In this document: piece by piece, positions 15,019 to 58,254 of the stretch | How the letters are laid out: every line of letters begins with the position of its first letter | Position numbering within the stretch: position 1 is the first letter of the stretch | NCBI GenBank assembly: GCA_964016885.1 | Contig: OZ024743.1 | Coordinates: forward strand, 77,872,001 to 77,936,000 | Direction: 5' to 3' | From: Eledone cirrhosa | Taxonomy: Eukaryota | DNA length: 64,000 bases | The notes under the pieces: model-generated | The model's input: the letters and a program-made list of their open reading frames with translations, nothing else | Told to the model about the DNA's origin: nothing | Database searches by the model: none | Made by a program: the position numbers and the translations under genes

Positions 15019-15390
15019 TCAACTCTGATCTTACAACATCTATAGATGTGAAGGTGTGAAAGACAACTAGTTTCCAATATTTCAGTTGATTTTAATGTCT
15101 ATCTTGCTGCTGTGCATGGCTGTATGGTGAAAGAGTTTGTATTGAAACCACATAGTTCTGAGTTTAGTGTCACTACATAGCACCTTACACGCGTGTCTAC
15201 TTCTAATGCCTTGTGAGTGAAATTTGGTTGAAGGAAACTGTACCGAAGCCAGCCATATAGATAAACACAATTTAGCATGATAAAATCGACAATGACACAT
15301 TTCTTCTAGCAAAGTCTGTGGCAGCCTAAAATAACAAATTGGGTGTTTAACAATTCAGCGACATTTCGACATGAGTCTAAATGTGAGAAC

Positions 15391-15481
15391 ACATAGCTGA
15401 GGAGCTTTCAACCCAGAGTCAGGAATGAACATTATTCGATTGTTCCTCGAGCTGATCAGCAGTGAAACATATGTAATATGT
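15391..15481 (+). ncRNA. Type I hammerhead ribozyme motif, long stem II, slightly decayed
   Basis: ACATAG-CTGAGGA-GCT...AGT-GAAA-CATATG-TA-ATATGT. Palindromic stem III ACATATGT; stem I ACATA/TATGT with one mismatch. Confidence 0.72.
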
Positions 15482-15547
15482 AATTAAATTTGTATATGAT
15501 GCAATACTGATTCTTTGTTCTCATTTCTTCTTCTTATATATATATAT

Positions 15548-15893
15548 ATCATCATCCTCCTCCTCATCATCATCATTTTACGTCCGCTTTTCCCAGCTTG
15601 CAAGGGTGGGATGGGAACTGATTCTGCCTTTATTTCTACAGCTGGATGCCCTTCCTAACACCAACCTCATTTACAGTGAGTTCTGGGTGCTTTTTTGCCG
15701 TGGCACCTCCACGACCACTTTGCAGTTGAATGATATGGACCCCAGTCCCTATAATCTCATTTCTCCAGCTGAGTAAACTGGAGCAATGTGAAATAAAGTG
15801 TCTTGCTCAAGGAAACAACACATCACCCGGTCTAAGAATTGAACTCACAACCTTTCGATTGCAAGGCCAATGCTCTAACCACTAAGCCTCCAT
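15548..15893 (-). mobile_element. tRNA-derived SINE with RTE-derived 3' tail
   Basis: Minus strand: head GGCTTAGTGGTTAGAGC...GAGTTCAATTC (pol III A/B boxes), one 48-bp unit, GGAAGGGCATCCAGCTGTAGAAA and a (GAT)n tail. A second copy lies at 28578-28900. Confidence 0.85.
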
Positions 15894-15955
15894 ATATATA
15901 TATAAGTGGTGTGGGATGCTTAAACCGCCCGTAAGCGGTATGCTTTGTAGAATCG

Positions 15956-16052
15956 AGACATATCTGAGGATCTTACGATTTCAGAGTCAGGTTTGATCAT
16001 TGGATCGATCGGGCCTCAAGCTGGTCGCCAGAGAAACGATTGTAATATGTCT
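15956..16052 (+). ncRNA. Type I hammerhead ribozyme with extended stem II
   Basis: AGACATAT-CTGAGGA-TCT...AGA-GAAA-CGATTG-TA-ATATGTCT. 8-bp stem I, intact core, quasi-palindromic stem III, GUA cleavage triplet. Confidence 0.85.
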
Positions 16053-16097
16053 AATAAATCTTATTCGTCGCACCACTGATTCTCCGTTTCTTATGTG

Positions 16098-54134: not shown

Positions 54135-54177
54135 GTCAAAGTTCTTTCGTCACACATTCTGTGACCTCTTCAGTGAC
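54135..54177 (-). ncRNA. Minimal type I hammerhead, upstream terminal repeat
   Basis: Minus strand GTCA-CTGAAGA-G-GTCACA-GAATG-TGTGAC-GAAA-GAAC-TT-TGAC. Confidence 0.85.
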
Positions 54178-55024
54178 TGGGGATTCTTTTCTTTGTTTTG
54201 TGCCTCTCCTTTGTTCTGTCCTACGCCATCTTGTTTTTGTGTGTGTTGTGTGCTTAGTTTGCGCATGTGTTACATCCGGGTGTCTGTGTGTGTTTTTATT
54301 TGTTTATTTACATGTTACTGGTTGGTTGTTTGTTCTATGTGTGTGTGTGTTTTCATTTTGCATTATTTTTACTGGCCCTTTACATTTGGAGTTCAAATCC
54401 CACCGATGTAAATGTTGCCTTTCATCCTTCCAGGATCGATAAAATATACATATATATATACATACATATTTATATGCATTTATGTGTGTATACATATTTA
54501 TATGCATTTATGTGTATATACACATATATGTAGATAAATGTATATATATATATATATGTCTGTGTGTGTGTGTATATATATGTGTATATATATATATGTG
54601 TGTGTGTGTATGTATGGATATATAAACAGATCTGTATATATACTTAACTATATGAGCATAGATCTTATGCTGATATATATACACATTTCTACAGAATTAA
54701 CCAATGTCCAAAATATTCAGAATTATTGTTTACCAGCATTTTCATCTTCATCATTGTCAGGACTTATTCTTATTATAATTTGAATTTTTATTATTATATT
54801 TATTATTATTATGATTATTATTGTTGTTATTATATTTTGACAGAATTGGTAGAGCGTCTGATAAAATGCCATTGTGGTATTTGTACTGGCCCTTTACATA
54901 TGGAGTTCAAATCCCACCGATGTAAATTTTGCTTTTCATCCTTCCAGGATCGATAAAATATAATACCAGTTAAATACTGTGGTCAACATTATTGACTTTC
55001 CACTTCTCCCAAATTACTGGCCTT

Positions 55025-55420
55025 AGCGGGAAGTGTTGCCTTCCAGCCAGTTTGTTGAAAGGTGGGTGAGAGAGGCAAGAATGACCCGTGTGAATGGACC
55101 TGCCCTGAGCGTATGCCTGTAGTATCGTAGGAGGAAAACTGGAAGAGGGCGCTTGCCCTAGCGGTCAGGGTAACGGTGGCTTTTTTGTGGGCTTTCTCCA
55201 CGAGTGACCCTCGGAAGTCTCCCCCTCCCCTAATGGGGAATTTTTCCTTGTTTCATTTTTATGCATATTTTGTTTTTGATTTTTTTTTTACACGCAGAAA
55301 TGCCCATTTGTACCGTCTTGTATTGTCCTGTGCTGTCCTTAATGTTATACTTTATGTCAACCCTTGTGGTTAATAAAGAAAGCATTATTATTATTATTAT
55401 TACTATCATTATTATTATCT
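55025..55420 (+). mobile_element. Tx1/L1-type 3' end with (ATT)n tail
   Basis: REVLPSSQFVERWVREARMTRVNGPALSVCL*, and 3' CCCTTGTGGTTAATAAAGAAA, parallel the end of the 33720-35431 element. Confidence 0.75.
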
Positions 55421-58118
55421 TCATAAAGATTATTGACAAATCAGTAAAAATCGGTAAAGGAGCAAACTAAATACCTTGTGGCATGAATTTACACACATGT
55501 ATGTGTATTTGTGTGAAGGTTGGTTTCAGGTTTTTGGTATCAAAAAGGTTTAACCTGTTAGCATTTAAACAGGCTGTATCTGGTCAGAATTTTCACATCT
55601 CTTTCTGTTCAAACCAGCTGTAACAGGCCACTCATACAAATTTTAAGGTATTGGTTTCAAAATAAATAATATCAAAATCTCATAGATTTGATATAATGTG
55701 AGGTAAAGCTTTTACCGTGAAAATATAATGGTAAATATAGAGTAATGTAAATGGGTTAATGTGAAAAATATAAACAATGGAAGATTTGCAAAGACGTTAA
55801 GTTGAAGAATAAGTGGAATTGGTAAAGTGTAAGGCAATGATGAAAGTGATGTAAGACTATTAGTATGGAAGAAGTGAAGGAAATGTGGTAAAAGTGATGT
55901 AAGTTTATTTCTTTATAGAATTCTGCTTATTATCATTATCATTTATTTTTAACAATTAAAGAAAAATTATTGAAATAAAACATCTGTAGAAATTTTGCCC
56001 TTTGAAAAGCAGTGCCCTAGCATGATCATAGCTATGATGGCTTAAATGAAACAAGAAAGAAAGAAACTTAATACTTATTGCAAAATATTTTTTTTTTATT
56101 ATTATTCTTTTAATTTTTTTGTTCTGGCGTTAAATTTTGGATATTCTTTGAAAAACAATGATTAAAACATGGTGAAGACATTTCCAAACCTTTTTTTTTT
56201 TACAATTCTGAACAAGAAGAAGAAAAGTAATTTGCATGGAATGTGATTTTATTGAAACAGACGAAAACTGTCCAAGAAAACTGTCCTTTTTACCTTCAAA
56301 ATATACAAAAAAAAATTTTTTAAATAAAATGCTTTTTCATCCTTTTTTTTCTAAATAAATGAAAATATTAATCTTACAATGTGTTTTTCAGTTTTACTTT
56401 AAATTCTCTCTTGTCTAAAATTTACTTTAAGATTTAGATTTTCAGTAAATAGATGGCAAATCAGAGGATTTTAGTCACCACTGCATCTAATAATCAATAT
56501 CATAGCCTTTTTGTTCAAGTATAACACTGTGTGTATGTATAAATCCTTAACCTCTAATAGAATCTTGGGCATTTTGAACCTGGTGGAGCGCCTCCCTCTC
56601 CAGGTTCTGAATGCAGCCAATTTCTTCCAGAGAAGAAGAAGAAGAAAGAAAGAGAGATAAAAGGGATGAAGATGAGAATGACATGTAGAGGAAGAATCGA
56701 CTCCAGTACTGGATTGGTATTTTTTCTTTTAATCAATCTTGAAAGGATGAGTGGAGGAATTTACCTCAGTGTATATAGAAGCTGACTTCACAATGCTGAT
56801 GTAATATTAGTATTTTGTACATTTTTTTTACTAAGCACTGGGCCACTTCTTTTGTAGGAGAAAAAACAATTAACTGATAATAACTAAATAAGTCTATCAA
56901 CTTTAGAAAACTGAACAGGGGCAACTCCAATAAAATTTGATCTTGAAACATACAGATTTAATTAATCATTATAAGACAGATGCTCAACCATTATTACTAT
57001 GCCGAGGTTGACTTTGCCTTTCATCCTTACGGGGTCGATAAAATAAAGTACCAGTAATACACTGGGTAATTGCTGGCCTTGTGCCAAAAGTAGAAACAAT
57101 TATTACTCTGCTTTGACACATAGAGTTACGGCCCTTGCTATTCTGAGTTCAAATCCCGCTGAGGTTAACTTTGCTTTTCATCCTTACGGGGTTGATAAAA
57201 TAAAGTACCAGTAATGCACTGGGTAATTGCTGGCCTTGTGCCAAAAGTAGAAACAATTATTACTATGTCAGTGTTTTTTGAATTATAAAATATGTTGGAT
57301 CTCCACCAACTTTGATGATGGATGCTCCAGGTGCTATAGCTAGACACTTCTACTGCAGTTGCTTCATAAGGAAGATGGTCTCCTAATCAATATATATACT
57401 CACACATACATACACACACACATATATATATATATATGAAGGATGTCTGCTCCATACAAAGCTTGACCACTTCTTGCACTTTATGTCTGTTCCCTTCTGA
57501 CATGAGATCTCAAATAGCTTTTGAGTCCTGAAAGCCTGTGAAAGACCCATCCACAAACCATACAATGATGTCTCATTTCATTCATGTTTCCACTTTGGGT
57601 GTGCTTATTGTGTATGTTCAAATGTCGCTTCAATATATATATATATATATATATGTAGATAAATCTACCAAGAGTTTACGGTAGTGTCCAATCCGTATGA
57701 AGAACTCAATGTAATCCGGATATCATGGAAAGAAGAGATGCAATGAAAAATCACTTTCGGTGAAAGATAAACGGAATACAGAGTCAAGATAAAATATTAA
57801 AAAAATAATGAATAAAACACATATATATCCTAGAAACGATCGTTAAATAATGAACTTTTTTTGTTTAATATAAGGAACTGTTTCATTGTTTTATTCATTA
57901 TTTTTTTAATATTTTATATATATATATATATATATACTGATTAGGGATTGAATTAATTTATATGAGATGCAGTTATATATATATATATATTCTATTATAA
58001 GTTGAGCCAACTTATGCAGCTTCATATGTAAATGAGATTAATCACCTCATTTACACAGACGAGAAAACTATATATTCTTGACTGCTTTCAAGTCCAACAT
58101 TCGCAAACGGTGGGAGGG

Positions 58119-58162
58119 ACCATCCTGAAGAAGGCCAGTCAAGCCTGAAATGCATAGATGGT
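58119..58162 (+). ncRNA. Canonical minimal type I hammerhead ribozyme in a ~245-bp insert between TA tracts
   Basis: ACCATC-CTGAAGA-AGGC-CAGTCAA-GCCT-GAAA-TGCA-TA-GATGGT. Perfect stems I and II, palindromic stem III ATGCAT, AUA triplet. Confidence 0.9.
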
Positions 58163-58254
58163 TGTCCCCCTTCCTTCTGCTGGACACCACCAGAGGGTGT
58201 TAGCCCCGGTGTTTCTTTAGAAATACAAAATTTCTATACATATATATATATATA

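Follow-up and report, generated by a model that had tools for sequence, protein, structure and literature searches.

The window analysed here, a 64,000-nucleotide stretch of the genome of Eledone cirrhosa (assembly GCA_964016885.1, contig OZ024743.1, positions 77,872,001 to 77,936,000, forward strand), carries numerous type I hammerhead ribozyme motifs. They lie on truncated ends of Penelope-like elements (PLEs) and on repeats without an open reading frame (ORF); the latter were likely copied into (TA)n tracts by a Penelope-type reverse transcriptase (RT)/endonuclease, probably of the Hydra clade. Directly seen are the two classes of carrier, a (TA)n flank on the 3' side, two fixed 3' ends within each family, 5' truncation to varying extents, partial tandems, and fold-backs that combine a short with a long end. 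The hammerhead carriers belong to known kinds and are not categorically new; new here are the families, their very high density, a footprint that a Hydra element has in common with retrozyme-type units, and a long-armed hammerhead variant.

Motifs were called with a descriptor of type I hammerheads (a CUGANGA core or its U3-A8 variant UUGANAA, stem II, GAAA, a short stem III, UH and stem I), which found 12 motifs in positions 13022-64000 of the window (51 kb); 40 local dinucleotide shuffles of the same region averaged 0.1 motifs and never exceeded 1. The arrangement is that of type I hammerheads, with the core CUGANGA...GAAA...UH, stems I-III and an open stem I, and at the level of sequence the motifs are confirmed as real members of this class. 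Ten of the 14 hammerhead positions listed in an initial annotation of this DNA pass the descriptor (cores 15397, 15964, 16270, 19454, 20119 and 58125 on the plus strand; 16632, 22862, 49995 and 54173 on the minus strand), and the other four belong to real hammerhead families as broken or unusual copies. Position 21481 marks the 3' half of a copy on the minus strand whose core has decayed; a first reading of it as a non-hammerhead was rejected, and one of nine fetched relatives is intact. Position 23439 is a second, 5'-truncated copy of the 22862 motif, while 39252 has its core and stem II with a stem I of only ~2 bp, likewise in its relatives, and 45736 carries a 9-nt deletion spanning stem III and the cleavage triplet; 9 of 20 loci of its family are intact. 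Absent from that list were two descriptor-intact motifs (21171, plus; 60745, minus) and four decayed or partial ones (20743, minus; 47159, 58623 and 63578, plus). Single-strand minimum free energy folding of 13 motifs gave z scores of -1.75 to +0.89, indistinguishable from shuffles, as might be expected given the minimal stem III; the family F unit (below) reached -2.0.

Covariation of the stems among homologues was found in two groups. In the group of family G, 36 distinct motifs from 106 descriptor hits change both sides of all nine stem II pairs, and 93.6% of cells are paired, a score reached by 0 of 500 shuffles; the pairing is inflated because the set was chosen by the descriptor, and relatedness also inflates covariation scores. 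A profile search uncovered a superfamily with a stem II arm of ~60 nt, which includes 15397, 15964 and 21481. Its alignment of 28 members (25 full-length sequences of 40 non-redundant profile hits, plus 3 added by hand) has double changes in 24 of 29 pairs and 76.2% pairing versus 29-36% in slid controls, a comparison that favours the structure in that it was named by eye. On the 3' side of the arm, a GAGCUG stretch is conserved at 86-96% per column. A kink-turn, considered for the internal loop of the arm from column counts, was dropped on account of a misfit in the flanking stem.

Five families of the window are identified by their sequence as 3' ends (pseudo-long terminal repeats, pseudo-LTRs or pLTRs) of protein-coding PLEs, two of them Hydra-type. 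Their features are as follows.

15905-15940, minus strand: family A tail piece, inverted (fold-back arm)
15941-16097, plus strand: family A, 5'-truncated 3' end of a Hydra-type PLE; core 15964, predicted cleavage after 16044
16485-16989, minus strand: PLE1 inverted pseudo-LTR with hammerhead core 16632 (U3-A8 variant)
16901-18541, plus strand: PLE1 frame, RT and C-terminal GIY-YIG, CX4CxxC linker, Neptune-like by motif
19097-19636, plus strand: PLE1 3' pseudo-LTR (to 19601) and 35-nt tail, then (TA)n; core 19454, stem III CCGG
37153-39330, plus strand: PLE2, broken RT and endonuclease frames; 3' hammerhead core 39256 with 2-bp stem I
49030-54360, minus strand: PLE3, pLTR-ORF-pLTR with broken frames; hammerhead cores 54173 and 49995
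60641-63682, strand unassigned: family G, fold-back of a Hydra-type PLE 3' end; intact hammerhead core 60745 (minus), decayed mirror copy 63578 (plus)
62023-62298, minus strand: family G endonuclease fragment

The hallmarks of endonuclease-bearing (EN+) PLEs are present, namely a pseudo-LTR, a partial tandem, an inverted 5'-truncated copy and a one-sided tail. In PLE1 a single frame matches RVT_1 (E 3.4e-06, below the curated cut-off) and then GIY-YIG (E 2.2e-05), as in an EN+ PLE, and the inverted and direct repeats holding 16632 and 19454 measure 505 bp; the hammerhead-bearing repeats of PLE3 lie 4,178 bp apart. Families A and G are provisionally assigned to the Hydra clade by their motifs, (TA)n insertion and 3' hammerhead. 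The intact core of family G lies 1.26 kb past its endonuclease fragment, for which the genome holds 49,942 first-look candidates. A complete copy of family G consists of a pLTR, a 743-aa frame and a pLTR, and the frame carries the RW(K/R), DKT and CxCX5C motifs and no CCHH, as judged by eye against Craig et al., 2021 and the Hydra-1_Obim protein. Protein P0002 had no Pfam match below E 0.1 and has 24 relatives at 30-39% identity; the sole named protein relative of the window's commonest element comes from Argonauta hians and shares motifs with Hydra-1_Obim. For family A, the motifs read were those of the linker and endonuclease only. Its 3' untranslated region (UTR) is ~1.8 kb long, and the family continues for at least 1.6 kb upstream of 15964. 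Of 25 loci retrieved with the upstream UTR, a Hydra-type endonuclease precedes it in 18 and the A 3' region follows it in 20, with 14 loci showing the two together. Family A had been considered as a short element, which was rejected when the upstream walk reached the 1.8-kb 3' UTR and a Hydra-type endonuclease. At four loci (L213, L214, L219, L224) a 32-bp minisatellite has grown to >1 kb within the family A 3' UTR. The start of another Neptune-like PLE RT fragment (63690-64000, plus strand; by eye) adjoins the Hydra fold-back of family G.

A further six families (B-F and H) are closed units of 316-659 bp that lack an ORF and join head to tail; most insertions comprise 0.5-1.7 units.

16206-16425, plus strand: family B, truncated copy of a 476-bp unit; core 16270, predicted cleavage after 16338
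19708-20356, plus strand: family E, fold-back of a 540-bp unit (inverted arm 19708-19845); core 20119
20672-21359, plus strand: family H, fold-back of a 487-bp unit; core 21171 (plus), partial mirror copy 20743 (minus)
22505-23497, minus strand: family F, 1.45 copies of a 659-bp unit; core 22862, predicted cleavage after 22785
45658-45936, plus strand: family D, truncated copy of a 317-bp unit; core 45742 broken by a 9-nt deletion
57982-58249, plus strand: family C, truncated copy of a 321-bp unit; core 58125, predicted cleavage after 58156

Each of the six has what characterises a retrozyme, an ORF-less head-to-tail unit with one type I hammerhead; the longest ATG frame in the units is 26-63 aa, and stem III of family E is a full hairpin. 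Families B, C, D, E and F each have 977 to 3,095 first-look candidates in the genome, as lower bounds. At 114 loci of ORF-less units, more than one unit is present in 60 and an inverted 5' arm in 45, and a (TA)n tract stands at the mapped 3' end in 85; one locus comes near two units, within the 1.5-kb flanks taken per locus. It is unlikely that these short families are only debris, that is, solo pseudo-LTRs or internal deletions of autonomous PLEs with no amplification of their own. Such a reading is true for A, G and PLE1-3, family A looked short until it was walked 1.8 kb upstream, and the own-genome searches score 40 candidates each. However, copies of B, C, D, E and F joined end to start close with fixed periods (476, 321, 317, 540 and 659 bp, respectively; the 487-bp period of H was read from one tandem locus), and in each of the 30 loci retrieved with the middle of B the sequence continues into the hammerhead arm of this family and not into an ORF. 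The B and H units are homologous over their whole length (71% identity) while differing in stem sequence. Family F copies are 98-99% identical at many loci (98-100% among the 40 best-scoring genomic copies), so the family is young, and a 310-bp unit related to family D occurs in a 17-copy array. This array was met in a genome sample of 79 evenly spaced 10-kb stretches (790 kb of a 2,996-Mb genome), the only such array in the 79, and its unit is 80% like part of family D. The locus (L153:3850-9333) consists of two divergent, (TA)n-bounded arrays of 5 and 12 copies and has the form of a classical multimeric retrozyme locus. Families C and D as they stand in the window are found again 263 kb and 500 kb away, flanks included (G000:C4:78193044 and C4:78418218), which indicates local segmental duplication.

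Several proposals of the initial annotation can be refined accordingly. Its many PLE-associated hammerhead families are borne out by the five that are pseudo-LTR ends (15964, 16632/19454, 39256, 49995/54173 and 60745), and its short non-coding elements by the six ORF-less families, although about half of the families are 3' ends of coding PLEs. Nor is every family the end of a coding PLE, the outcome that it had named as depriving the motifs of novelty, as six are closed ORF-less units. The 190-270-bp inserts that it delimited are truncated pieces of longer elements rather than complete ones. Stem sequences, which it took to be mostly unrelated, are not all so: 15397, 15964 and 21481 form one superfamily, and the 16270 and 21171 units are the related ones of B and H.

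Both groups of carriers end at (TA)n, with two fixed positions for the 3' end. Of the 88 sampled motifs, 69 are followed by a (TA)n tract within 200 nt, compared with 22% of random positions, in agreement with the TA targeting that had been proposed. The two preferred ends are at unit positions 114 and 225 in B, 362 and 463 in E, and 295 and 401 in F, and about 50 and 130-140 nt past the predicted cleavage site in A and G; those of family C are less sharp. The resulting tails measure ~80-90 nt in A and G and ~100-110 nt in B, E and F, as against 35 nt in the single Neptune-like copy. Among 115 loci, which are top-scoring matches rather than random copies (40 candidates being scored per own-genome search), there are 53 fold-backs, of which 41 join one short and one long end, two are long-long, none is short-short and 10 are unclassified. 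One-short-one-long fold-backs make up 17 of 19 in the Hydra-linked family A and 24 of 34 in the ORF-less B, E and F, and the same rule in both points to shared PLE machinery. That the units are real retrozymes moved by something else (a Neptune-type PLE, an RTE/CR1 long interspersed nuclear element (LINE), or DNA rolling-circle copying) we consider quite improbable: the window does contain Neptune-like PLEs and fragments of RTE-type LINEs, and no sequence link of the ORF-less units to Hydra elements was found among the fetched loci, but the units lack a poly(A) or simple-repeat tail, and their two ends and one-short-one-long fold-backs match those of Hydra-linked family A, though a Neptune-type partner may still apply.

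Under the favoured reading, in which a Penelope-type enzyme copied the ORF-less units into (TA)n, the endonuclease would cut both strands of a TA tract. Each of the two DNA ends would then start reverse transcription from a different, fixed site inside the RNA, and joining of the two cDNAs would give the fold-backs. Templates longer than one unit, either tandem transcripts or ribozyme-cut and re-ligated circles, could yield the copies of more than one unit. By analogy with published PLE hammerheads, the ribozymes, in most of which stem III is palindromic, would have weak activity, act as dimers and serve to trim tandem transcripts. The majority of copies in the genome are probably by-products that are silent and decaying. 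We infer the partner of the ORF-less units from the footprint alone, and a number of observations weigh against this reading. Families B-F share no sequence with any autonomous element among the fetched loci, the tail lengths favour a Hydra partner weakly, and the loci behind the fold-back counts are, as said, the top-scoring ones. The window families 15397, 21481 and J (47159/58623) are placed in neither class of carrier. On the side of the ribozymes, the descriptor-based choice of the G-group set has been mentioned; RNAalifold predicted zero pairs on the long-arm alignment, the upper helix of which is weak (62.5% paired), and an Rfam scan returned no hammerhead among 75 matches at E<=5, which counts towards chance matching. 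Published experiments add to these. Only one of nine tested retrozyme dimers cleaved (Li et al., 2026, bioRxiv 10.64898/2026.07.22.740005), and with PAc, a Poseidon element of Anolis, mutating the hammerhead left insertion in vitro unaffected, and none of the RNA-seq reads had its end at the cut site (Frangieh et al., 2024, PMC11167929).

The genome sample contained 108 motifs. Chance matching in AT-rich repeats, to which the empty Rfam result and the unremarkable folding energies might be ascribed, is already refuted by the controls (0-5 motifs in 10 shuffles, 0 in the reversed and 1 in the complemented sequence), together with the compensatory changes and the consistent pseudo-LTR position. 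Without the 17-copy array, 91 motifs in 78 stretches correspond to 117 per Mb (bootstrap 88-149), or ~350,000 per genome. A strict set (CUGANGA core, stem I score >=4, stem II >=3, short arm) retains 40 motifs, which is 51 per Mb or ~154,000 per genome (100,000-215,000). The very large genome-wide complement anticipated in the initial annotation is thus upheld at 51-117 motifs per Mb, roughly one per 9-20 kb, none of which is Rfam-detected in the window. The sampled motifs fall into 38 clusters, 24 of them singletons, a few of which are probably chance matches. Counts for the long-arm group are low because the descriptor misses CCGANGA (C for U at core position 4), which is found in 5 of the 28 aligned members (L006, L130, L163, L181 and L282 in alignment A2).

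Minimal motifs number 2,000-9,000 in Schistosoma, coelacanth and Xenopus (Cervera and de la Pena, 2014, PMC4209133), and hammerhead counts reach >6,000 in 16 families in a coral, ~5,000 in a mussel and 126,247 in the axolotl (Cervera and de la Pena, 2020, PMC7229834). The ~150,000-350,000 extrapolated here, with another descriptor, compare with ~2,000-9,000 in the former study; we estimate that the total is above the published counts compared, a loose comparison as the descriptors differ and one in which supplements may hold other counts, or long-stem examples that touch on the long-armed variant. As in metazoan PLE hammerheads, there is a palindromic stem III, a U3-A8 variant and an extra base before stem II, and there are many families per genome, with mostly dispersed and single motifs and opposite-strand pairs 100-700 bp apart (PMC4209133). 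PLE hammerheads with a palindromic stem III cut weakly as dimers (PMC4209133; reviewed in PMC6765202). Hydra elements with hammerheads are found in (TA)n, including an octopus family, Hydra-1_Obim of Octopus bimaculoides (Craig et al., 2021, PMC8557442). The elements described here share with that clade RW(K/R), DKT, the CxCX5C linker, the pseudo-LTR hammerhead, (TA)n insertion and the inverted 5'-truncated copy, but their 3' UTRs are 1.3-1.8 kb long whereas the published elements are generally <3 kb in all, and the stem II arm of family A is ~60 nt compared with 3-10-nt loops in the Hydra hammerheads of File S2 (PMC8557442). In some Naiads, including an octopus one, the core halves lie 35-50 nt apart (PMC8557442).

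Retrozymes have been described as derivatives of PLEs that are not autonomous (PMC7229834; Li et al., 2026). Like metazoan non-LTR retrozymes, the units here are ORF-less, low in GC (34-40%), a few hundred bp long and head-to-tail, with one type I hammerhead each; like them, too, they are proposed to ride on PLEs, and monomers are common (PMC7229834; Li et al., 2026). Unlike them, they are mostly dispersed copies of fewer than two units with PLE-type ends in (TA)n. Expression and circles of retrozymes have been reported in coral, mussel and axolotl (PMC7229834; Li et al., 2026), while the present units are known from DNA alone. In PAc, two internal RT start sites bound the tail in vitro and both strands of AT-rich DNA are cut (PMC11167929), to which the AT-rich target here and the both-strand cutting and two tail-bounding start sites that we infer are alike. 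The accessible passages on PAc tie no single start site to each fold-back arm, and the tails here (~80-110 nt) differ from the 30-40 bp cited for Penelope (PMC11167929). A 2026 repeat annotation of Octopus vulgaris reports recently active PLEs, and the word ribozyme is absent from its accessible text (PMC13282606). A literature search on hammerheads with octopus or cephalopod, or on an extended stem II with Penelope, found no paper on this complement, subscription journals being mostly outside its reach.

A more specific proposal, offered tentatively and quite possibly wrong, is that a Hydra RT/endonuclease dimer primes both cuts of the TA tract at two fixed sites of one RNA, for which reason the ORF-less units would follow the one-short-one-long rule of Hydra elements, and that this is the largest hammerhead complement among the counts found. 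If so, the mobiliser of animal retrozymes would be named and PLE fold-backs and tails explained, and the long-armed hammerhead, in which the internal loop of stem II is conserved, would represent a structural variant that current descriptors do not cover. The fixed ends and fold-back rule offer a genomic footprint for asking what enzyme mobilises the retrozymes of animals and what gives rise to the fold-backs and tails of PLEs. The genome also supplies dozens of natural hammerhead variants, including those with a long stem II arm, and family F is young enough to assay.

The motifs of the window placed in neither class of carrier are listed below.

15390-15482, plus strand: hammerhead A', core 15397, predicted cleavage after 15475; long stem II, stem III CATATG
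21445-21575, minus strand: decayed long-stem-II hammerhead (21481)
47135-47256, plus strand: decayed hammerhead of family J, GAAA altered (47159)
58596-58718, plus strand: second decayed copy of family J (58623)

A fragment of an abundant family lies at 60409-60477 (minus strand), with further members at the sampled loci L137, L140 and L172; sampled members of this family have the GAAA-stem III-UA part, a 14-nt hairpin and a duplicated core upstream. Two tRNA-like matches occur at 22120-22190 and 15832-15888 (both minus strand), the second inside a very high-copy repeat resembling a short interspersed nuclear element. A short AT-flanked stretch at 42110-42330 (plus strand) resembles, by eye, a membrane-protein coding exon with its 3' end; a host gene may contain or adjoin the repeats. 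The window as a whole is AT-rich with many microsatellites, and positions 1-13021 are occupied by a 48-bp tandem array of ~271 copies with a 94% match.

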